From: Escherichia coli | Lineage (GTDB): Bacteria; Pseudomonadota; Gammaproteobacteria; Enterobacterales; Enterobacteriaceae | Strand: one strand, 5' to 3' | Assembly: GCF_003018115.1 (NCBI RefSeq) | Contig: NZ_CP027457.1 | Length of the DNA: 64,000 nt | Part shown: positions 35,576 to 51,366 of the stretch, piece after piece | Layout: the number at the start of each line of letters is the position of its first letter | Numbering within the stretch: position 1 is the first letter of the stretch | Translations under genes and position numbers: made by a program | The notes under the pieces: generated by a model | The model's input: the letters and a program-made list of their open reading frames with translations, nothing else | What the model was told of the DNA's origin: nothing | The model's database searches: none

Positions 35576-36853
35576 ATGAAAACCAAAGTTGCTGCTATTT
35601 ATGGCAAGCGGGATGTCCGTCTGCGCGAATTTGAACTACCAGAAATTACCGATAATGAATTACTGGTGAGTGTGATTTCTGACAGCGTCTGTTTATCCAC
35701 CTGGAAAGCGGCGTTACTCGGTAGTGAACATAAACGCGTACCCGACGATTTAGAAAATCATCCGGTCATTACCGGGCATGAATGTGCCGGGGTTATTGTC
35801 GAAGTGGGTAAAAATCTCACTGGCAAATATAAAAAAGGCCAGCGTTTTGTATTGCAACCGGCGATGGGATTACCAAGCGGATATTCAGCGGGCTACAGCT
35901 ACGAATATTTTGGCGGCAATGCCACTTATATGATTATTCCCGAAATCGCCATTAATTTGGGCTGCGTATTACCGTATCACGGCTCTTATTTTGCTGCGGC
36001 GTCGCTGGCAGAGCCTATGTGCTGCATTATTGGTGCTTATCATGCCAATTATCACACCACGCAATATGTTTATGAGCATCGCATGGGCGTCAAACCTGGC
36101 GGCAATATTGCGCTACTGGCGTGTGCAGGTCCGATGGGCATTGGCGCTATAGATTACGCCATTAACGGCGGCATACAACCGTCGCGGGTGGTGGTGGTCG
36201 ATATCGACGACACACGTCTGGCGCAGGTACAGAAGCTGCTGCCGGTGGAACTGGCGGCCAGTAAAGGCATTGAGCTGGTGTATGTGAATACCAAAGGGAT
36301 GAGCGATCCTGTCCAGATGCTGCGGGCGCTGACAGGAGATGCCGGGTTCGATGACATTTTTGTTTATGCGGCGGTGCCTGCTGTCGTTGAGATGGCTGAT
36401 GAATTACTGGCGGAAGATGGCTGTCTGAACTTCTTTGCCGGGCCGACGGATAAAAACTTCAAAGTGCCGTTTAATTTCTACAACGTTCATTACAACAGCA
36501 CGCACGTCGTCGGTACATCCGGCGGTTCAACGGACGACATGAAAGAGGCGATTGCCCTTAGCGCCACTGGGCAGTTACAGCCGTCGTTTATGGTGACCCA
36601 TATCGGTGGCCTGGATGCGGTGCCAGAAACCGTGCTCAATCTGCCGGATATCCCTGGCGGTAAAAAACTCATTTATAACGGCGTGACCATGCCGCTCACT
36701 GCCATTGCCGATTTTGCCGAAAAAGGCAAAACCGATCCGCTGTTTAAAGAGTTGGCGCGGCTGGTTGAGAAAACGCACGGCATCTGGAATGAACAGGCCG
36801 AGAAATATCTGCTGGCACAATTTGGCGTTGATATCGGGGAGGCCGCGCAATGA
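35576..36853 (+). CDS. yggP: Zinc-type alcohol dehydrogenase-like (MDR) protein YggP
   Basis: 425 aa, MDR family (GHECAG zinc-ligand region, Rossmann fold). Confidence 0.9.
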   Translation: MKTKVAAIYGKRDVRLREFELPEITDNELLVSVISDSVCLSTWKAALLGSEHKRVPDDLENHPVITGHECAGVIVEVGKNLTGKYKKGQRFVLQPAMGLPSGYSAGYSYEYFGGNATYMIIPEIAINLGCVLPYHGSYFAAASLAEPMCCIIGAYHANYHTTQYVYEHRMGVKPGGNIALLACAGPMGIGAIDYAINGGIQPSRVVVVDIDDTRLAQVQKLLPVELAASKGIELVYVNTKGMSDPVQMLRALTGDAGFDDIFVYAAVPAVVEMADELLAEDGCLNFFAGPTDKNFKVPFNFYNVHYNSTHVVGTSGGSTDDMKEAIALSATGQLQPSFMVTHIGGLDAVPETVLNLPDIPGGKKLIYNGVTMPLTAIADFAEKGKTDPLFKELARLVEKTHGIWNEQAEKYLLAQFGVDIGEAAQ

Positions 36854-37815
36854 TGTCCCTGGCGTGGCCATTATTTCGCGTTACGGAACAGGCAGCGTTG
36901 GCTGCCTGGCCGCAAACCGGATGTGGCGACAAAAATAAAATTGATGGCCTGGCGGTCACCGCGATGCGCCAGGCATTAAACGAAGTCGCTTTTCGTGGAC
37001 GAGTGGTTATCGGCGAAGGAGAAATTGACCATGCGCCGATGCTGTGGATTGGAGAAGAGGTGGGCAAAGGCGATGGGCCAGAAGTCGATATCGCGGTTGA
37101 TCCCATTGAAGGCACGCGGATGGTGGCGATGGGGCAGAGCAATGCGCTGGCGGTCATGGCTTTCGCCCCTCGAGATAGCCTGTTACATGCGCCCGATATG
37201 TATATGAAAAAGCTGGTTGTTAATCGACTGGCTGCCGGGGCGATTGATCTGTCTTTGCCTCTGGCGGACAACTTGCGTAACGTGGCGCGGGCGTTAGGTA
37301 AACCGCTGGACAAGCTGCGCATGGTTACGCTGGATAAACCGCGTCTGAGTGCCGCGATTGAAGAAGCAACACAGCTGGGCGTGAAGGTTTTTGCCCTGCC
37401 GGATGGCGATGTCGCCGCCAGCGTGCTGACCTGCTGGCAGGATAATCCTTACGATGTGATGTACACCATCGGCGGTGCGCCGGAAGGCGTGATTTCTGCC
37501 TGTGCCGTTAAAGCATTAGGCGGGGATATGCAGGCCGAGCTGATTGACTTTTGTCAGGCTAAAGGGGATTACACGGAAAATCGGCAGATTGCAGAGCAGG
37601 AGCGCAAGCGTTGCAAGGCAATGGGCGTTGACGTTAACCGTGTGTACTCGCTCGATGAACTGGTGAGGGGGAACGATATCCTCTTTAGCGCTACGGGCGT
37701 GACGGGCGGTGAGCTGGTGAACGGTATCCAACAGACGGCGAATGGGGTGCGGACGCAGACATTACTGATCGGCGGCGCGGACCAAACGTGTAATATAATA
37801 GACTCCCTGCATTGA
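36850..37815 (+). CDS. yggF: Class II fructose-1,6-bisphosphatase (GlpX paralogue) YggF
   Basis: 321 aa GlpX-family; start overlaps yggP stop. Confidence 0.92.
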   Translation: MMSLAWPLFRVTEQAALAAWPQTGCGDKNKIDGLAVTAMRQALNEVAFRGRVVIGEGEIDHAPMLWIGEEVGKGDGPEVDIAVDPIEGTRMVAMGQSNALAVMAFAPRDSLLHAPDMYMKKLVVNRLAAGAIDLSLPLADNLRNVARALGKPLDKLRMVTLDKPRLSAAIEEATQLGVKVFALPDGDVAASVLTCWQDNPYDVMYTIGGAPEGVISACAVKALGGDMQAELIDFCQAKGDYTENRQIAEQERKRCKAMGVDVNRVYSLDELVRGNDILFSATGVTGGELVNGIQQTANGVRTQTLLIGGADQTCNIIDSLH

Positions 37816-37836
37816 TGGTGATCTATCGGAAGACCA

Positions 37837-38346
37837 ATGGCGACGCTGACAGAAGATGATGTGCTTGAGCAACTGGATGCACAGGACAATTTATTTTCAT
37901 TTATGAAAACGGCGCATTCTATTTTGCTCCAGGGGATACGCCAGTTTCTACCGTCGCTGTTTGTCGATAACGATGAAGAGATCGTCGAATATGCAGTGAA
38001 GCCGTTACTCGCCCAAAGCGGCCCGCTTGACGATATTGATGTTGCGCTGCGTTTGATTTATGCGCTGGGGAAAATGGATAAATGGCTGTACGCCGATATC
38101 ACGCACTTTTCCCAGTTCTGGCATTACCTGAACGAACAGGATGAAATGCCCGGATTTGCCGATGACATGACCTGGGATTTTATCAGCAACGTCAATAGCA
38201 TAACCCGCAATGCGACGCTCTATGACGCGTTGAAAGCGATGAAGTTCGCCGATTTCGCCGTCTGGTCAGAGGCGCGTTTTAGCGGGATGGTCAAAACGGC
38301 GCTGACGCTGGCAGTAACGACAACCTTAAAGGAATTAACGCCGTGA
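37837..38346 (+). CDS. yggD: MtlR-like regulatory protein YggD
   Basis: 169 aa, MtlR-family. Confidence 0.88.
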   Translation: MATLTEDDVLEQLDAQDNLFSFMKTAHSILLQGIRQFLPSLFVDNDEEIVEYAVKPLLAQSGPLDDIDVALRLIYALGKMDKWLYADITHFSQFWHYLNEQDEMPGFADDMTWDFISNVNSITRNATLYDALKAMKFADFAVWSEARFSGMVKTALTLAVTTTLKELTP

Positions 38347-39056
38347 AAATTGAATTAACGGTGAATGGTCTGAAGGTACAGGCACAGTACCATGATGATG
38401 AGATAGAAAATGTACATAAACCGTTGCTGCGCATGTTGGCGGCCTTACAGACGGTAAATCCGCAGCGGCGTACGGTAGTTTTTCTTTGCGCTCCGCCGGG
38501 GACGGGGAAATCTACCCTAACCACCTTCTGGGAATATCTCGCACAACAAGACCCGGAACTACCCGCTATTCAGACGCTCCCGATGGATGGTTTTCACCAT
38601 TACAATAGCTGGCTGGATGCGCATCAATTGCGCCCCTTCAAAGGCGCACCAGAGACATTTGACGTTGCGAAACTGGCGGAAAATCTGCGCCAGGTAATGG
38701 AAGGGGATTGTACGTGGCCACAGTACGATCGACAAAAGCATGATCCTGTTGAAGATGCGTTGCACGTTACCGCACCACTCGTCATCGTCGAAGGAAACTG
38801 GTTGTTGCTGGACGACGAGAAGTGGTGCCAGCTTGCGCAATTTTGTGATTTCTCGATCTTTATCAACGCGCCAGCTACTGCGTTGCGGGAACGACTGGTG
38901 GGGCGCAAGCTGGCGGGAGGGTTATCGCTGGCAGACGCAGAAGCCTTTTATGACCGTACCGATGGGCCGAATGTTCGCCGGGTGCTGGAAGAGAGTCTGC
39001 CTGCACATTTGACCTTAATAATGACCGCTACGGGTGAATATCGTCTGGTGGATTAA
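38343..39056 (+). CDS. yggC: P-loop NTPase/kinase-like protein YggC
   Basis: 237 aa, Walker A (APPGTGKST). Confidence 0.9.
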   Translation: MKIELTVNGLKVQAQYHDDEIENVHKPLLRMLAALQTVNPQRRTVVFLCAPPGTGKSTLTTFWEYLAQQDPELPAIQTLPMDGFHHYNSWLDAHQLRPFKGAPETFDVAKLAENLRQVMEGDCTWPQYDRQKHDPVEDALHVTAPLVIVEGNWLLLDDEKWCQLAQFCDFSIFINAPATALRERLVGRKLAGGLSLADAEAFYDRTDGPNVRRVLEESLPAHLTLIMTATGEYRLVD

Positions 39057-39705
39057 CGTTCCTGATTACACCATCTTCCAGTCGCACCACCCGAGAGAAA
39101 TGACGCCGGGTAAATGCGGCGTCATGACTGATTGCTACGACGCTCGTGCCTCGCTGGCGGCACTTTTCCAGCCAGCTTTCAAACACGCTCATCCAATTTT
39201 CGTCAAAATCCCGACTCGGCTCGTCCAGCAGCAATAGCGGCGGAGAGAGTGCTTCCAGGCAGGCGACGGCGACCATCCGTCGCTGCGCACTATGCAGATC
39301 TAACGGATGCGCGCTGGCAGTGTCTGCTAACTGACAGCATTGCAGGGCAGCATGGGTACGTTGAGTGATTTCATCCGCCGGGCATTTTTGCAGTTTCAAA
39401 CCAAATGCGATCTCGTCGGCGACGGTGCTGTGAAAAAGCTGGTTTTCCGCTTCCTGAAACAGTACGCCAATCTTTGCTGCACGTTGGCGGTTTTTCAGGT
39501 TTTTCATCGCCTGTTGTTGCAATATAACCGTACCGGTTGTGGGCGTAAGAAGACCTGCCATTACTCGTAACAGCGTCGATTTTCCCGCGCCATTGTCGCC
39601 GGTCAGCGCCAACCATTCACCTTGTTTGAGTTGCAGAGAAATGTCGCAAAGACAATCCGTTGCCGCGCCAGGCCAGCGATAAGTTATCTGATTTAACGTT
39701 AGCAT
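39028..39705 (-). CDS. ECF/ABC transporter ATPase subunit 2 (EcfA'-like) with degenerate signature motif
   Basis: 225 aa; Walker A GDNGAGKST, Walker B LLLLDEPS, LSGGQ replaced by LHSAQRR; 3' end overlaps yggC 3' end by 29 bp (convergent). Confidence 0.85.
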   Translation of the reverse strand: MLTLNQITYRWPGAATDCLCDISLQLKQGEWLALTGDNGAGKSTLLRVMAGLLTPTTGTVILQQQAMKNLKNRQRAAKIGVLFQEAENQLFHSTVADEIAFGLKLQKCPADEITQRTHAALQCCQLADTASAHPLDLHSAQRRMVAVACLEALSPPLLLLDEPSRDFDENWMSVFESWLEKCRQRGTSVVAISHDAAFTRRHFSRVVRLEDGVIRNVNPPDDIHP

Positions 39706-40376
39706 AGTGGCTGGAGCGCTCCGTTTTGCAATTGCCAGGCTTGCTGGCAGTAGTTCAGGAAAGGTGTGCGATGACGTTCAAAAAGAATAATCAGCGAACC
39801 ACGTTCAAGCGCCCAGTGTTGTAAGCGCTGCAACAGCATTTCGCTGGCCTGCGGCGTCAGGCGACTAAAGGCTTCATCAAGTATTAAGAGCTTTGGCTGC
39901 ATCGCGATGGCGCAGGCGATGACCACGCGCTGTGTCTCTCCACCGGAGAGTGTTGCCGGGTGACGATGGCGCAACGGCTGGCACTCGGTCAGAGTCAGGG
40001 CGGCATCAATCCGCGCCATAATCTCTTCTTCAGCAAGACACAGATTTTCTGGCCCAAAGGCAACTTCTTCTTCCACGCTAAAGGTACAGCCGGAGAGCTG
40101 CAAATAGGGCGATTGCTGAACGAGCTGGATGGTGGCGGATTGTTCATTAAGCGGGAGATGCCCAATGGGCGTACCGAGAAGCGTCCCCGTGCCGGTTATC
40201 TCTCCTGGCAGAAAGTCCGGATACCAGCCCGCCATCAGCTGTGCCAGCGTACTTTTGCCACTGCCGTTGTCACCAAAGATGGCGACCATCCCCGGTTTGA
40301 CATAGTGAAAGTCATAACAGAACGGAGGATGCGTTGAGTGTGTCGGGCAATAACGGAACTGTTCTAACGTAACCAT
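39699..40376 (-). CDS. ECF/ABC transporter ATPase subunit 1 (EcfA-like)
   Basis: Walker A GDNGSGKST, signature LSGGETQR, Walker B LLILDEA; first ATG at 40376 (GTG at 40382 also possible); overlaps flanking genes. Confidence 0.85.
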   Translation of the reverse strand: MVTLEQFRYCPTHSTHPPFCYDFHYVKPGMVAIFGDNGSGKSTLAQLMAGWYPDFLPGEITGTGTLLGTPIGHLPLNEQSATIQLVQQSPYLQLSGCTFSVEEEVAFGPENLCLAEEEIMARIDAALTLTECQPLRHRHPATLSGGETQRVVIACAIAMQPKLLILDEAFSRLTPQASEMLLQRLQHWALERGSLIILFERHRTPFLNYCQQAWQLQNGALQPLC

Positions 40377-41071
40377 ATCCACGCTCCGAATTCTGTCAGC
40401 ATCAGCAAGATCATGGTGTAACGCGCTACGCGTTGTAGGGTGCTATCGGCTGGTGCCCACAACGTTGTTCGTCGGTTGTGGATCCGAAATGCCCGCATAT
40501 CCAGCGCCGCACCACGGACAGCAAGATTGTTTAGCGCATTGTGTGTTAGCGGAATAATTAACGCGGGCATCGCACGTAAACGCTGATACCAGCCCTCATC
40601 CAGCGGCACGCCGCGGGCACGCTGCGCTTCATGAATAATCGCTAATTGCCGTTTTAACTGCTCAACGACCAATAACGGCCCGGCAAACAGATAAGCGACG
40701 CCTGGCGGCAGGCGAGAAGCAAACAGAGCGCGGATAAAACATTGCACGGGGACGTACTGCATCCACAACTGTGAGGTTGAAACAATCGCCAGAATCCGCA
40801 ACCAGAGCGTAATAGCATGCGTCCAACGCTCCGGCGAACGCGGCGTGCCGCTTAGCCATTCTGTTAGCCAGCCACCGTGTACCAGCCACAGCCCGGCTCC
40901 CAGCGAGAACATCAGCCAGACGACATATTTTGCCCGCCGCCGCGTGGCCTTTAGCGCAATAAGGCAGAAAAAGGTCGCCGCGCTATAGACTGGCAGTATT
41001 GTCTGTGTGGGCAGGATAAGCGTGGTGCAGGCCGCCAATGCCCATAGTGTTAATGAGGTAAATGGATGCAT
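40364..41071 (-). CDS. ECF transporter transmembrane T component (EcfT/CbiQ family)
   Basis: 235 aa polytopic; conserved Ala-Arg-Gly motifs (EAQRARGVP, LAVRGAAL); start codon directly abuts the S-component stop. Confidence 0.83.
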   Translation of the reverse strand: MHPFTSLTLWALAACTTLILPTQTILPVYSAATFFCLIALKATRRRAKYVVWLMFSLGAGLWLVHGGWLTEWLSGTPRSPERWTHAITLWLRILAIVSTSQLWMQYVPVQCFIRALFASRLPPGVAYLFAGPLLVVEQLKRQLAIIHEAQRARGVPLDEGWYQRLRAMPALIIPLTHNALNNLAVRGAALDMRAFRIHNRRTTLWAPADSTLQRVARYTMILLMLTEFGAWIWLR

Positions 41072-41650
41072 TTAGCGCACGGCAGCCATTGCCGGAAAAT
41101 GGCGCGTGGTGCGAATCGGCAGCTGGCGCAGTAAAAGCCAGACAATCACCGCTGTAAGAGTTTTATCGACCAGGTTCGCGCCTATCACCGTAATCGCCAC
41201 CGACTCCACCAGGTTTTGCCCCATCGAGTGCATCCAGGCAACGAACAAATCGGCTCCGCTACCGGTGACACCGCCGAACAGCGCAGTACGCAGCGGTACA
41301 GCGACGACCGTTACCGCAAGCGTAATAATCACGCCGCTGACAACGACTTTTGGCAGGGTGCGAAACCAACCCGCTCGCGCCAGCCAACCGGCGACCAGGC
41401 CGATGACCATCGCGACGGGTGCAAATGCGGCGGCGATCGGGTCGGTCAGCAATCCCCAGAGTAAATTGGTCAGTAAGCCGGTCAGCATTCCGATCACCGG
41501 ACCAAGCAGTACCGCGCTAATAAGTGTGCCGATGGAGTCGAGAAATATAGGTAATTTGACCATGCTGGCCAGTTGCCCGCCGATCATATTGATGGCGATA
41601 GATATAACGATCAACACCAGTGCCTGACTGGAAAAGTGGCTACGCGCCAT
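41072..41650 (-). CDS. ECF transporter substrate-specific S component (substrate unknown)
   Basis: 192 aa from MARSHFSS, ~6 TM segments, GAGAGG RBS 7 nt upstream; S-component-like small integral membrane protein. Confidence 0.75.
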   Translation of the reverse strand: MARSHFSSQALVLIVISIAINMIGGQLASMVKLPIFLDSIGTLISAVLLGPVIGMLTGLLTNLLWGLLTDPIAAAFAPVAMVIGLVAGWLARAGWFRTLPKVVVSGVIITLAVTVVAVPLRTALFGGVTGSGADLFVAWMHSMGQNLVESVAITVIGANLVDKTLTAVIVWLLLRQLPIRTTRHFPAMAAVR

Positions 41651-41672
41651 AAGAAAACCTCTCTGAAAGTAG

Positions 41673-42104
41673 TTATTTAACGGGGGAAATATGCAACTCG
41701 TCGTAACCAGAAAGCGCGCAAGGTTGGCGGCTAAACGCCAGTTCCTCAAGGCTACCGATCACCAGTTCAAGCGTGGTCCGCACGGTACAGCCGGGCATCA
41801 TATGACCGCCAAGCATCGTGCCGTGTGGATCGGAAACGCAGAGATGAAGATGCTCACCACTCTGTTCCAACGTGCCGTTTAGTGAGATCACTTCGAATGT
41901 ACCGTTCAGGAGCGTGGTGCCTTCTTGCCCGGCATAGCGCAAGGCGATGTCAGTCAGGCTACCGGTACAGCCTGCAATCCAGGCGGCATGAAGTTGCTGC
42001 TGCTGTGCAAAAGCGTGTAGCTGGGAAAAAACTTCCTGCCCGGGGAGGAGGCGCAGTGCGTAAAAGCGTGCGGAGGAAGAATATGGGTAGGGCAATGTCA
42101 TCAT
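41673..42104 (-). CDS. PPC/DUF296 domain protein, first gene of the ECF operon
   Basis: 143 aa; recognised as PPC (DUF296) from memory; GGAG RBS 7 nt upstream of MMTLPYPY. Confidence 0.7.
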   Translation of the reverse strand: MMTLPYPYSSSARFYALRLLPGQEVFSQLHAFAQQQQLHAAWIAGCTGSLTDIALRYAGQEGTTLLNGTFEVISLNGTLEQSGEHLHLCVSDPHGTMLGGHMMPGCTVRTTLELVIGSLEELAFSRQPCALSGYDELHISPVK

Positions 42105-42475
42105 TGGAGTACTCCGAAACTCGGACGTATTGCGGATAATATCGACGCTGCATCAGTCATATTCTGATATAAGTCAGGGTTTGTGACGGCACAACGAAAA
42201 GATTTTGCTACGCTTATTCGTGATTCTGCAAAGTGGAATAAATTCCACAGGGGCGGGGCTGAAAACGTGACGTAAGTCAGATATTTGTTTTCTTTGACTG
42301 GACAATCATTCCTTTTATTCCACGTTTCGCTTATCCTAGCTGAAGCGTTTCAGTCGATTAAATGTTCGACAATTAACCAATCAGTCGCAGTTTGCGACAG
42401 GTAAGGTTTCCCCGGACGATTTGCTGGATTACTCTGTCTGGCAAATTTGCTCAGGGAAAACCTTGCAGGAGATCT

Positions 42476-43495
42476 ATGACCGTACGCGTAGCGATAAATG
42501 GCTTCGGTCGCATCGGGCGTAATGTGGTTCGTGCTTTGTATGAATCCGGACGCCGGGCGGAAATTACCGTGGTGGCAATCAACGAACTGGCGGATGCTGC
42601 GGGCATGGCGCATTTGTTGAAATATGACACCAGCCATGGCCGTTTTGCATGGGAAGTACGACAGGAACGCGATCAACTTTTTGTTGGTGATGACGCCATC
42701 CGCGTATTGCATGAACGTTCACTGCAATCGCTCCCCTGGCGTGAACTTGGCGTTGATGTAGTCCTCGACTGCACCGGCGTATATGGCTCCCGCGAGCATG
42801 GCGAAGCGCATATTGCCGCCGGGGCCAAAAAAGTGCTCTTTTCACATCCTGGCAGTAACGATCTCGACGCGACCGTTGTTTACGGCGTCAATCAGGATCA
42901 ACTTCGTGCGGAACACCGCATCGTTTCTAACGCTTCCTGTACCACGAATTGCATAATTCCCGTCATCAAATTGTTAGATGATGCGTACGGTATTGAGTCC
43001 GGCACTGTGACCACAATTCACTCCGCCATGCACGATCAACAGGTTATTGATGCATACCATCCTGACCTGCGTCGCACCCGGGCAGCCAGCCAGTCGATCA
43101 TTCCGGTCGATACTAAACTGGCCGCCGGTATCACACGATTTTTTCCGCAATTTAACGATCGCTTTGAAGCGATTGCGGTACGTGTGCCAACCATAAATGT
43201 GACGGCAATCGATTTAAGCGTGACGGTGAAGAAACCTGTAAAAGCCAATGAAGTCAACCTGTTGCTGCAAAAAGCAGCACAAGGTGCATTTCATGGTATA
43301 GTTGACTATACGGAATTGCCGTTGGTCTCTGTAGATTTTAACCACGATCCGCACAGTGCCATTGTCGATGGCACCCAAACCCGGGTCAGTGGCGCACACC
43401 TGATCAAAACGTTGGTCTGGTGCGATAACGAATGGGGCTTTGCTAACCGAATGCTCGACACGACGTTAGCTATGGCTACTGTTGCTTTCAGGTAA
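42476..43495 (+). CDS. epd: D-erythrose-4-phosphate dehydrogenase
   Basis: ORF 42392..43495; start set at [15 protein letters not shown] (339 aa); GAPDH family. Confidence 0.96.
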
Positions 43496-43544
43496 GACGC
43501 AAGCAGCGTCTGCAAAACTTTTAGAATCAACGAGAGGATTCACC

Positions 43545-44708
43545 ATGTCTGTAAATAAGATGACCGATCTGGATCTTGCTGGGAAACGTGTATTTATCCG
43601 TGCGGATCTGAACGTACCAGTAAAAGACGGGAAAGTAACCAGCGACGCGCGTATCCGTGCTTCTCTGCCGACCATCGAACTGGCCCTGAAACAAGGCGCA
43701 AAAGTGATGGTAACTTCCCACCTGGGTCGTCCTACCGAAGGCGAGTACAACGAAGAATTCTCTCTGCTGCCGGTTGTTAACTACCTGAAAGACAAACTGT
43801 CTAACCCGGTTCGTCTGGTTAAAGATTACCTCGACGGCGTTGACGTTGCTGAAGGTGAACTGGTTGTTCTGGAAAACGTTCGCTTCAACAAAGGCGAGAA
43901 GAAAGACGACGAAACCCTGTCCAAAAAATACGCTGCACTGTGTGACGTGTTCGTAATGGACGCATTCGGTACTGCTCACCGCGCGCAGGCTTCTACTCAC
44001 GGTATCGGTAAATTCGCTGACGTTGCATGCGCAGGCCCGCTGCTGGCAGCTGAACTGGACGCGCTGGGTAAAGCACTGAAAGAACCTGCTCGCCCGATGG
44101 TGGCTATCGTTGGTGGTTCTAAAGTATCTACCAAACTGACCGTTCTGGACTCCCTGTCTAAAATCGCTGACCAGCTGATTGTTGGTGGTGGTATCGCTAA
44201 CACCTTTATCGCGGCACAAGGCCACGATGTGGGTAAATCCCTGTACGAAGCTGACCTGGTTGACGAAGCTAAACGTCTGCTGACCACCTGCAACATCCCG
44301 GTTCCGTCTGATGTTCGCGTAGCAACCGAGTTCTCTGAAACTGCACCGGCTACCCTGAAATCTGTTAACGATGTGAAAGCTGACGAGCAGATCCTGGATA
44401 TCGGTGATGCTTCCGCTCAGGAACTGGCTGAAATCCTGAAGAATGCGAAAACCATTCTGTGGAACGGTCCGGTTGGCGTGTTCGAATTCCCGAACTTCCG
44501 CAAAGGTACTGAAATCGTGGCTAACGCTATCGCAGACAGCGAAGCGTTCTCCATCGCTGGCGGCGGCGACACTCTGGCAGCAATCGACCTGTTCGGCATT
44601 GCTGACAAAATCTCCTACATCTCCACTGGCGGCGGCGCATTCCTCGAATTCGTGGAAGGTAAAGTACTGCCTGCAGTAGCGATGCTCGAAGAGCGCGCTA
44701 AGAAGTAA
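43545..44708 (+). CDS. pgk: Phosphoglycerate kinase
   Basis: ORF 43482..44708; start set at [15 protein letters not shown] (387 aa). Confidence 0.98.
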
Positions 44709-48994: not shown

Positions 48995-49891
48995 ATGGAC
49001 ATTTTTATTTCGAAAAAGATGCGCAATTTCATTTTATTAGCGCAAACCAATAATATTGCCCGGGCGGCAGAAAAAATCCATATGACGGCTTCGCCATTTG
49101 GTAAAAGCATTGCCGCGCTGGAAGAACAAATTGGCTATACGCTATTTACCCGCAAAGATAATAATATCAGCCTCAATAAAGCCGGACAGGAACTGTATCA
49201 AAAACTGTTCCCGGTTTATCAACGGCTTTCTGCGATTGATAATGAAATCCATAACTCAGGGCGTCGTTCACGAGAAATTGTGATTGGCATAGATAATACT
49301 TATCCGACAATTATTTTCGATCAGTTGATTAGTCTCGGAGATAAGTATGAAGGCGTGACCGCCCAGCCAGTTGAGTTCAGCGAAAACGGCGTTATCGATA
49401 ATCTTTTTGACCGCCAGTTAGATTTTATTATCTCCCCACAGCATGTATCTGCACGAGTTCAGGAACTGGAAAACCTGACTATCAGTGAACTACCACCGCT
49501 GCGATTAGGCTTTCTCGTTTCTCGCCGTTATGAAGAGCGTCAAGAGCAAGAGCTGCTTCAGGAGCTGCCCTGGCTACAAATGCGCTTTCAGAACCGGGCC
49601 AACTTCGAAGCAATGATTGATGCGAATATGCGACCTTGTGGGATCAATCCAACCATTATTTATCGTCCCTACAGTTTTATGGCCAAAATCAGCGCCGTGG
49701 AGCGCGGACATTTTCTGACGGTGATCCCGCATTTTGCCTGGCGACTGGTGAATCCGGCAACGCTGAAATATTTTGATGCGCCGCACAGGCCGATGTATAT
49801 GCAGGAATATCTTTATTCAATCAGAAATCATCGTTATACCGCCACGATGCTTCAGCATATTGCTGAAGATCGTGACGGGACGAGTCATTAA
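48995..49891 (+). CDS. ygfI: LysR-type transcriptional regulator YgfI
   Basis: ORF 48980..49891; start set at MDIFISKKMRNF (298 aa); N-terminal wHTH; 3' end overlaps scpC 3' end by 4 bp. Confidence 0.86.
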   Translation: MDIFISKKMRNFILLAQTNNIARAAEKIHMTASPFGKSIAALEEQIGYTLFTRKDNNISLNKAGQELYQKLFPVYQRLSAIDNEIHNSGRRSREIVIGIDNTYPTIIFDQLISLGDKYEGVTAQPVEFSENGVIDNLFDRQLDFIISPQHVSARVQELENLTISELPPLRLGFLVSRRYEERQEQELLQELPWLQMRFQNRANFEAMIDANMRPCGINPTIIYRPYSFMAKISAVERGHFLTVIPHFAWRLVNPATLKYFDAPHRPMYMQEYLYSIRNHRYTATMLQHIAEDRDGTSH

Positions 49892-51366
49892 CCCAGCATC
49901 GAGCCGGTTGCTATTAAATTACGGTGTAAGTCGAAGACGTGGCTAAGATCGTGGTGAATATGTCCGCCAGGCGCATTTTCCAGATAGCGATGCAGATAAT
50001 CCCGATACATAGGATGTGCACAATTATCAATGATAGTGCGGGCGCGTTGAAGCGGGGAAAGACCGCGCAGATCGGCGATCCCTTGTTCAGTGATGATCAC
50101 TTTGACGCTGTGTTCGCTGTGATCAACATGGCTGCACATTGGCACGACGGTTGAGATCTTGCCTTCTTTAGCAATCGACGGGGCCATAAAGATCGACAGA
50201 TACGCGTTGCGTTCAAAATCACCGCTGCCGCCGATGCCGTTCATCAGATCGACCCCGGCTACGTGCGTTGAGTTGGCATGCCCGTAAATATCAAACTCCA
50301 GGCCGACGTTCAGAGCGATGACGCCCAGACGACGGATGATTTCCGGGTTATTGGAAATCTCCTGCGGACGCAACACAATGCGGCTGGCAAAGTAATCCAT
50401 ATTGTCGTAAATCTTGCGCAGGGAATCGGCCGAGATTGTCAGGCTGGAGGCGCTGGCCCCGCTGATTTTGCCGGTTTCCAGTAAATGCACCACCGATTCC
50501 TGTAGCACTTCCGAATACATCATAAACGGAGGAATTTCCGGGTTTTCCCCCAGACGCGCCATTACCGCATTATTGATATTGCCCACGCCACTTTGCAGCG
50601 GCAGAAATTCCGGCGGAATACGCCCATGCGCCATTTCCTGCAACAAGAACGTGACCACGTTATCGGCAATCTGCTGGCACATGGGATTTTGCTTATCCAG
50701 CATATTACCGGCGTCGGGCAAGTTGGTTTCCACGACGGCGACAATCTTTTTCGGATCGATTTGCACATAGCGGGTACCGACGCGATCCATTGCATGGAAG
50801 ATCGACACGCTATTGCGCCGCGGTGGCGCGCCAGGAATCACAATATCTGCCAGTTCTGCAACGCGCGGATCGTGATAGTGATTAAGTTCAATGATCACTT
50901 TCTTCGCTCGCAGCAGCCAGGTCGGCGCATTACCGATCCCGCTGGTTAACCAGACTCGACCATCTGGTGCCAGTGCCGATGCTTCAATGACGGCAACATC
51001 AATGTCGCCGAAGAAACCGTAATTGACCATTTGCGCCACTTCGCTCAAATGCAGGTCAACGAAACTCACCGCGCCCTGATTGATCTTTTTACGTAAACCG
51101 GACGATGTTTGATATGGCGCACGCCAGGAAACAGCATCGGCGTCAGAAAGTACATCGTCAGCGGCGGCGCTGATTGACGCCCCCGTCAGCAGGCGAATTT
51201 GATACGGCTTTTTGGCCTCATGCTGTTCGTTAGCTCTGCGGGCAATCGCGGTGGGTAGGGCTTTCGGCGAACCCGCTGGGGTAAAACCGCTAAATGCCAC
51301 CATGTCGTTATGCTGGATAATTTCTGCCGCTTCATCGGCGGTCATCCTTGTCCACTGAGTTTCCAT
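49888..51366 (-). CDS. scpC: Propionyl-CoA:succinate CoA-transferase
   Basis: 492 aa, full-length match. Confidence 0.94.
   Translation of the reverse strand: METQWTRMTADEAAEIIQHNDMVAFSGFTPAGSPKALPTAIARRANEQHEAKKPYQIRLLTGASISAAADDVLSDADAVSWRAPYQTSSGLRKKINQGAVSFVDLHLSEVAQMVNYGFFGDIDVAVIEASALAPDGRVWLTSGIGNAPTWLLRAKKVIIELNHYHDPRVAELADIVIPGAPPRRNSVSIFHAMDRVGTRYVQIDPKKIVAVVETNLPDAGNMLDKQNPMCQQIADNVVTFLLQEMAHGRIPPEFLPLQSGVGNINNAVMARLGENPEIPPFMMYSEVLQESVVHLLETGKISGASASSLTISADSLRKIYDNMDYFASRIVLRPQEISNNPEIIRRLGVIALNVGLEFDIYGHANSTHVAGVDLMNGIGGSGDFERNAYLSIFMAPSIAKEGKISTVVPMCSHVDHSEHSVKVIITEQGIADLRGLSPLQRARTIIDNCAHPMYRDYLHRYLENAPGGHIHHDLSHVFDLHRNLIATGSMLG

Follow-up and report, generated by a model that had tools for sequence, protein, structure and literature searches.

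Overlaps between convergent genes are well represented in Escherichia coli K-12, where 75 of the 663 overlapping adjacent pairs are convergent (Huvet & Stumpf 2014, PMC4161906), and they have been attributed to movement of stop codons (PMC4161906; see also PMC2716372). For convergent pairs, termination driven by polymerase collision has been described, in a model that needs a stem-loop in the overlapping region (bioRxiv 10.1101/2022.10.23.513370). Rho and NusG terminate untranslated and antisense transcripts (PMC11551753). On yggC, one of the two genes considered here, we found a single relevant literature item, in which its product is predicted to be a sugar or polyol kinase and is marked as in progress (PMC3223725). 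A search of the literature on yggC and on overlapping pairs returned no paper on the particular overlap described below.

We analysed a 64-kb stretch of E. coli DNA (hereafter the window), in which two of the seven convergent gene pairs overlap. One is scpC/srsR, with 4 bp in common. The other, which is the subject of this report, is the meeting point of the convergent operons cmtBA-yggP-glpX-fumE-yggC (+ strand) and PPC-ecfS-ecfT-ecfA-ecfA' (- strand). The features of the region are:

38343..39056, + strand: yggC, nucleoside/nucleotide kinase family, 237 aa (ORF, NCBIfam NF006742, RefSeq CDS)
39028..39056, both strands: tail-to-tail overlap (ORF list and raw sequence)
39028..39705, - strand: second (last) ABC ATPase gene, 225 aa (ORF; Pfam ABC_tran, 96 bits; RefSeq CDS)
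39699..40382, - strand: first ABC ATPase gene, 227 aa (ORF, Pfam, RefSeq; RefSeq start 40376)
40364..41071, - strand: ECF T (transmembrane) component, 235 aa (RefSeq product name)
41072..41650, - strand: ECF S (substrate-specific) component, 192 aa from the RefSeq start (Pfam ECF_trnsprt)
41673..42104, - strand: PPC (DUF296) domain protein, first gene of the cluster (Pfam PF03479, 98.7 bits; RefSeq CDS)
42476..43495, + strand: epd, far-side neighbour of the ECF cluster (RefSeq CDS; synteny kept in all related loci)

The two genes share 29 bp tail to tail. In the raw sequence, yggC (38343-39056, + strand) ends in TAA at 39054-39056, and the last ECF ATPase gene (39028-39705, - strand) ends at 39028-39030, which reads CTA on the + strand and TAG on the - strand. 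RefSeq/PGAP annotates both coding sequences with the identical 29-bp overlap in E. coli F9792 and CFT073; across a 7.2-kb comparison stretch the former departs from the window at one base only, 38845, and the latter is about 96% identical to it. The ORF list, the raw sequence and these two RefSeq genomes thus all bear out the coordinates and the convergent overlap reported in the initial annotation. Within the overlap, codon position 1 lies opposite position 1, position 2 opposite 3 and position 3 opposite 2. Since each wobble position therefore faces a second position, no site in the overlap is synonymous in both genes.

Neither yggC nor the ATPase gene contains an in-frame stop upstream of its annotated end, as judged from the ORF list and the sequence. 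The four main clusters of the E. coli ATPase in the protein database, which together hold about 3,650 members, have a uniform length of 225 aa, and other lengths are rare in E. coli, being confined to singletons or small truncated clusters. Identical stops are present in E. marmotae, E. albertii and E. whittamii. The stops of both genes are natural, and both genes are intact and protein-coding. The case that the initial annotation had named as fatal to its claim, a sequencing error hiding a true ATPase stop further upstream, is excluded by the presence of the same stop in thousands of genomes and in the three other Escherichia species. Because both reading frames are real conserved genes, chance is the wrong test for this overlap.

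The identities of the two genes, given as yggC and the last ATPase of the ECF operon when the overlap was first noted, were upheld by NF006742, ABC_tran and RefSeq. YggC matches the NCBIfam equivalog NF006742 with 520 bits over residues 1-237 of 237, on a model of 237 positions. Its gene starts with GTG, overlaps fumE (yggD) by 4 bp and is the last member of the tight + strand string cmtB-cmtA-yggP-glpX(yggF)-fumE(yggD)-yggC. On the - strand, the genes overlap or abut except for a short gap after the PPC gene, and the two ATPase genes overlap each other by 7 bp. The S component scores 32.5 bits against Pfam ECF_trnsprt (PF12822; cut-off 30.7) and is nearest to the CD3073 family, with 134.9 bits against NCBIfam NF045596, under its 180-bit cut-off. 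The T component reaches 21.4 bits against Pfam CbiQ, under the 25-bit cut-off. For the last ATPase, the best NCBIfam matches are ECF_ATPase_2 and ECF_ATPase_1, both under their cut-offs, and its alignments to solved EcfA1 chains extend to the final residue, 225. The occurrence of S, T and two ABC ATPase genes together identifies the five-gene cluster as a predicted ECF (vitamin-type) transporter module.

Of 5426 complete E. coli genomes, 3317 (61%) carry the entire cluster together with the junction; in the others, K-12-type ones among them, epd directly follows yggC. The K-12-type yggC allele and that of the window are both 714 bp long and align without gaps. A two-rate change-point analysis placed a break at yggC nucleotide 470, which is position 38813, with 3.8% divergence before it and 40.6% after it, and BLAST placed the resumption of K-12 homology near 42255, which is some 150 bp upstream of the PPC gene. 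Together these delimit the following feature:

38813..42254, no strand: segment of ~3.4 kb that differs between the haplotypes (change-point and BLAST)

The initial annotation had suggested defining the K-12 indel boundary by alignment; the boundary is not at the overlap, and the break lies inside yggC. From left to right, the segment takes in 244 bp at the 3' end of yggC, then all of the ECF cluster, and finally about 150 bp of DNA upstream of PPC. K-12-type genomes have about 307 bp instead, which consist of a full-length, very different coding region for the C-terminal third of YggC and a 63-bp spacer. This K-12-type C-terminal third is an outgroup even to the YggC of Salmonella and Atlantibacter. 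A BLAST comparison with 80 species-level yggC loci revealed no close relative that could have donated it, the best match being 69% in C. amalonaticus. The K-12-type yggC is a mosaic with a 3' third that is about 40% divergent.

Every other Escherichia species has either the yggC allele linked to ECF or what is left of a decayed cluster. In Escherichia sp. E1V33 and sp. MOD1-EC7003 the cluster has suffered internal deletions, and ATPase remnants spanning residues 138-225 or 144-225 still lie against yggC. This distribution implies that lacking the cluster is a derived state, reached on at least three occasions. The ECF-epd gene order is identical in Escherichia, Salmonella, Citrobacter, Klebsiella, Atlantibacter, Phytobacter and others. 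Neither direct nor inverted repeats were found flanking the ECF cluster or the haplotype breakpoints, with short matches at chance level only, and the annotation near the cluster contains no integrase, transposase or tRNA. The repeats, mobility genes and non-syntenic spread that mark a genomic island or mobile element were accordingly lacking. Judged from gene order and alignments, the ECF cluster is an old resident next to epd in many Enterobacteriaceae that has been lost repeatedly, and not an island. The earlier description of the cluster as welded to the junction and not delimited by repeats holds as far as the repeats are concerned; what it missed is that the cluster is an old neighbour of epd and was not inserted.

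To survey the junction in Enterobacteriaceae, we examined the genomic context of the ATPase orthologues and also, with one genome for each species, searched for yggC and classified its downstream neighbourhood; in the species scan the Epd protein served as a positional marker only. Three configurations were found: yggC-ECF-epd, tktA-ECF, and yggC-epd without ECF. Wherever yggC faces an intact ECF cluster the two genes overlap, and a gap was observed in none of these loci. The lengths of the overlap are:

29 bp: E. coli, E. marmotae, E. albertii, E. whittamii
32 bp: three Salmonella lineages
44 bp: several Citrobacter species, Atlantibacter
26 bp: Silvania
41 bp: Superficieibacter
68 bp: C. koseri
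92 bp: UBA5654
11 bp: Phytobacter

The overlap is kept in five Escherichia species, and other lengths occur in at least seven further genera. All eight lengths equal 2 modulo 3, so the relative reading frame has never changed, and the junction alignment attributes the differences to in-frame indels and stop-codon shifts. An unbroken overlap in more than eight genera could reflect selected coupling and not just a failure to regain a spacer. The ECF cluster faces tktA, with the cmt-ygg block absent, in C. freundii, one S. enterica and a Klebsiella (loci L006, L008 and L009); there the ATPase is 216-218 aa long, 7-9 residues shorter, and a spacer of 43-161 bp separates the genes. The ECF-less state, with epd about 285 bp after yggC, is found in K-12-type E. 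coli, Raoultella, Lelliottia, Buttiauxella, C. amalonaticus and others. Each of these two modules, ECF cluster and cmt-ygg block, has thus been gained or lost independently of the other, and the overlap is the homologous, inherited and ancient form of the junction between them.

The overlap codes for the last 8-9 codons of each gene, which specify the endings ...TGEYRLVD of YggC (+ strand) and ...(V)NPPDDIHP of the ATPase (- strand), each followed by its stop. The YggC tail contains a conserved G-E-Y, of which G231 and Y233 are invariant in our alignment A2, and similar G-x-Y endings occur also in ECF-less lineages and in distant Firmicutes homologues. Past residue 212 the ATPase is variable between genera, with P-[DS]-D-I kept in Escherichia and Salmonella. 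The Phytobacter orthologue ends in the canonical GKIAADGTPDEVL, which aligns without gaps to GVIRNVNPPDDIH (G-T-P-D-E-V against the Escherichia ending). NPPDDI is therefore probably the end of the nucleotide-binding domain, resembling the usual G-T-P-x-E-V, and probably ancestral. The tail nevertheless seems dispensable, because the tktA-facing lineages have replaced it by unrelated ends of 3-7 residues. Within Escherichia, the ATPase tails drift (PPDDIHP, PPDNIHP, PPGDIHP, LPDSIHR), as do those of YggC (TGEYRLVD, TGEYCLVD, NGEYCLAD), which is consistent with a weak constraint on both. That the ATPase tail is mere translated antisense of yggC is less likely, given that the EcfA1 alignments reach residue 225 and that the Phytobacter ending is canonical.

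A scan for consensus terminators between 38900 and 39200 detected no terminator-like site on either strand. As a positive control, the same scan detected the tktA terminator of L008; it missed the hairpin of L006, which has one mismatch and was confirmed by folding. The tktA-facing spacers carry a bidirectional terminator with an A-tract, a G+C hairpin and a U-tract, with fold energies of -21.1 kcal/mol in L008 (z = -4.6), -18.7 in L009 and -24 in L006 (tktA strand). At the yggC junction, the - strand RNA past the ATPase stop is no more structured than its shuffles (z = +1.07 and +0.48), and no hairpin is present inside the 29-bp overlap. An Rfam scan of 38000-42600 gave no matches at E<=1. 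The assertion in the initial annotation that there is no room for a terminator is therefore correct insofar as there is no canonical intrinsic terminator in or near the junction on either strand. What the geometry excludes is only an intergenic hairpin, and termination inside the opposing gene is possible. The interference and antisense pairing raised in the initial annotation may occur but do not follow from the geometry. Over the initial 160 nt, C exceeds G in both read-through RNAs (C/G ratios 1.2-2.1); this composition is compatible with rut sites but weak evidence for them, because coding sequences in general tend to have C-rich antisense strands.

The sole strong hairpin near the junction lies within the ATPase gene and begins 44 nt downstream of the yggC stop:

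39100..39125, no strand: perfect 9-bp palindromic hairpin, ATGACGCCG-N8-CGGCGTCAT, inside ATPase codons 194-202 (HDAAFTRRH)

It folds with -17.7 kcal/mol in the + strand RNA (z = -4.9, calculated over 41 nt) and -15.6 kcal/mol in the - strand RNA. A U-tract is absent on the + strand, while UUUCUCUC comes after the stem on the - strand. Among synonymous recodings of HDAAFTRRH, 16-19% fold as stably, and the stem is largely explained by its being encoded by conserved residues. Eight or nine of the nine pairs are kept in Escherichia, Salmonella, most Citrobacter and Atlantibacter, and they decay to 3-5 of 9 in Klebsiella, Superficieibacter and Phytobacter. The hairpin is equally present in the tktA-facing L006 and L008, which own a terminator. 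Selection of this hairpin as a terminator or pause site is thus unsupported, and it could still act as a pause site. A weak GUGCC...GGCAC+UUUU element was also seen in the fold at about 39147-39170, where the 141-nt region has a z of only -2.1.

The overlap between yggC and the ATPase gene is old, conserved and ordinary, and it is neither an error nor the scar of a mobile element. We think it likely that it is a real, ancient and functionally passive junction of the terminal genes of two convergent operons. The junction would have lost, or never had, an intergenic spacer, and would later have undergone only in-frame indels and stop-codon shifts. Because a hairpin terminator is absent, we propose that each transcript runs past its own stop into the antisense of the other gene. 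This read-through RNA, by then untranslated and C-rich, would be ended by Rho/NusG inside the opposing gene, and head-on collision of polymerases would contribute when both operons are active. Mutual interference would be a side effect, relevant only if both operons were strongly induced together. From sequence considerations, termination at the yggC junction most likely takes place inside the opposing gene, in a Rho-dependent or collision-driven manner.

The overlap might instead have been selected as an either/or switch between the cmt-ygg polyol/sugar operon and the ECF operon, acting by interference or by RNase III cleavage of the complementary 3' ends; we consider this unlikely. It would agree with the facts that every lineage with yggC and an intact ECF cluster keeps the overlap, that none of them has gained a terminator, and that the same ECF operon has a strong one when it faces tktA. 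In E. coli, moreover, expression can be tuned by convergent or antisense transcription of synthetic design (PMC4731013). However, the overlap length drifts between 11 and 92 bp and the tails vary even within Escherichia, which fits neutral stop-codon drift. Moreover, each partner has repeatedly been lost, the ECF cluster in K-12-type E. coli, E1V33 and MOD1-EC7003 and the cmt-ygg block in C. freundii, some Salmonella and Klebsiella, and the 3' end of the remaining partner shows no compensating change. Given the deletion bias of bacterial genomes, a conserved spacer-less junction is expected in any case, which also counts against a switch. We attach still less probability to the broader claim that the junction was kept throughout the Escherichia-Salmonella-Citrobacter history because the operons are coupled negatively, with transcription of either one into the terminal gene of the other silencing the partner by collision or RNase III. 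If that were true, the junction would be a built-in either/or switch and a natural test case for collision termination without an intergenic hairpin.

The palindrome at 39100-39125 could also be regarded as a working bidirectional terminator or pause hairpin that ends read-through from yggC and positions polymerase collisions, particularly as the collision model requires a stem-loop. The perfect 9-bp stem, its stability (-17.7 kcal/mol, z = -4.9) and its formation in both transcripts speak for such a role, as do the UUUCUCUC that follows the stem on the - strand, the flagging of the orthologous C. freundii site as terminator-like by the scanner, and the retention of 8 or 9 of the 9 pairs in Escherichia, Salmonella, most Citrobacter and Atlantibacter. 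We nevertheless find this role improbable, since 16-19% of synonymous recodings of HDAAFTRRH are equally stable and the stem follows largely from conserved residues, and since the hairpin occurs equally in the tktA-facing L006 and L008 and has only 3-5 pairs left in Klebsiella, Superficieibacter and Phytobacter. In addition, the + strand has no U-tract, and termination at this site on the - strand would leave an ATPase mRNA that lacks a stop codon. It is very improbable that the overlap is a scar left when an ECF island, acquired horizontally, inserted with one end in yggC. The presence of the cluster in only 61% of complete E. coli genomes and the sharp difference between the K-12-type and ECF-type haplotypes could be read in this way, but the cluster is syntenic next to epd across genera and has neither flanking repeats nor mobility genes, the K-12 breakpoint at ~38813 is away from the overlap, and all other Escherichia species carry the ECF-linked allele or a remnant. 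Scarcely credible is an artefact of annotation or sequencing, with the real stop of the ATPase gene or of yggC further upstream. It could draw on the variability of the ATPase tail past residue 212 between genera and on the absence of this tail in tktA-facing lineages; yet the stops are shared by two independent complete genomes (F9792, CFT073) and by four further species of Escherichia, about 3,650 ATPase sequences from E. coli are 225 aa long, no upstream in-frame stop exists, and YggC matches its equivalog over the full length.

By itself the overlap matters little: genes that overlap tail to tail are common, and RefSeq already annotates this pair in thousands of genomes. Its value lies in a natural comparison, available within single genera, between an ECF operon that ends at a strong bidirectional terminator (facing tktA) and one that ends at none (facing yggC). 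This comparison could address terminator-less convergent termination and its possible expression cost. It also clarifies the history of the yggC-epd region in the pangenome, where the ECF state is ancestral and has been lost in at least three separate ways in Escherichia.

Compared with described systems, the overlap is an ordinary feature and a well-documented example of convergent overlapping gene pairs. Like the known cases, it involves two genuine genes on opposite strands that share their 3' ends over a short distance, and it is conserved among relatives. Its 29 bp exceed the 4 bp of the minimal stop-on-stop type represented by scpC/srsR. The pair is missing from the K-12-based lists because K-12 lacks the ECF cluster; its history is traceable, with one frame class and lengths from 11 to 92 bp in at least eight genera. 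As at the ynaJ-uspE bidirectional sites (Ju et al. 2019, as cited in bioRxiv 10.1101/2022.10.23.513370), the convergent transcripts must end in a shared region and collision is plausible. Unlike those sites, which according to that preprint are intergenic and need a stem-loop, the yggC/ATPase junction has no intergenic DNA, and its nearest hairpin is intragenic and accounted for by the encoded protein. The tktA/ECF terminator of C. freundii, some S. enterica and Klebsiella provides a contrast, as it belongs to the same operon in the same convergent geometry, whereas the yggC-facing form has neither spacer nor terminator. As in dedicated ECF operons, genes for S, T and two ATPases form one tight operon with overlapping or abutting frames. 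The two ATPases (225 and 227 aa) differ from a typical EcfA of ~280 aa in having no C-terminal extension, with profile matches ending at ~231 of 279, and the yggC-adjacent operon differs from dedicated ECF operons in being led by a PPC/DUF296 gene.

We compared yggC of the window haplotype with that of K-12-type E. coli strains. The first 470 nucleotides of the gene (nt 1-470) are ~96% identical between the two, and the 3′ third (the last 244 nt; window 38813-39056 versus 2014-2257 of the K-12-type locus L002) shows only ~59% identity. Despite this divergent 3′ third, the K-12-type gene still codes for a full-length protein. The yggC gene of K-12-type E. coli is a mosaic. No donor of the K-12-type 3′ segment was found among 80 species-level loci, where the top match reached 69%.

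Over window positions 36800-44000, the sole difference from E. coli strain F9792 is at position 38845 (G in the window, T in F9792), which gives YggC Cys168 in the window and Phe168 in F9792. All seven YggC sequences in the alignment have Cys168. The source of the window is therefore either very closely related to F9792, or the substitution is private to F9792.

The ECF cluster has been deleted in place in Escherichia sp. E1V33 and Escherichia sp. MOD1-EC7003 (loci L015 5689-5982 and L011 5689-5912, respectively). The E1V33 remnant joins ATPase residues 138-225 to PPC residues 1-27, and that of MOD1-EC7003 comprises ATPase residues 144-225 with a frameshift; both ATPase 3′ remnants still overlap yggC. 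These two losses are independent and differ from the K-12-type replacement. For the complete E. coli genome NZ_CP180597.1 (hit H30), the query match was confined to the epd end and the annotated cmtA adjoins epd, which suggests a larger deletion that took out everything from yggP up to and including the ECF cluster. In CFT073, the cmt-ygg operon is undergoing decay. The window alignment to this strain breaks down at glpX/yggF (L003 701-1016), which lies upstream of fumE and is annotated there as a split/partial pseudogene.

In Enterobacter sp. ENT03, yggC overlaps tail-to-tail by 24 bp (L047 5694-5717) with the gene of an unrelated ABC ATPase. This ATPase (33% identical) has a permease gene upstream and stands in place of the ECF cluster. 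The absence of a dedicated yggC terminator seems not to be confined to a single context. The window contains a second convergent overlap besides yggC/ATPase, a tail-to-tail 4-bp overlap of scpC and srsR (window 49889-49892, RefSeq annotation of F9792).

Two repeat features were located in the region:

Window 39100-39135, minus strand: 9-bp palindrome, then UUUCUCUC (codons HFS) on the coding strand, inside the ATPase gene

Window 42230-42242 and 42314-42326: inverted repeat AAAGTGGAATAAA / TTTATTCCACGTT, in the divergent PPC gene-epd region

The palindrome with UUUCUCUC resembles an intrinsic terminator located ~70 nt before the stop codon, and a terminator scanner flagged the orthologous site of C. 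freundii (L006 5588-5604). A synonymous-recoding control indicated that this element follows from the conserved peptide. The inverted repeat may represent a regulator binding site; the K-12-type spacer holds a similar pair, TTTATTCCAG...CTGGAATAAA.

The two ECF ATPases themselves (window 39028-40382) are unusually short, with 225 and 227 amino acids. Because their ECF_ATPase profile matches both end at approximately position 231 of 279, the C-terminal extension typical of EcfA/EcfA′ is absent from both.
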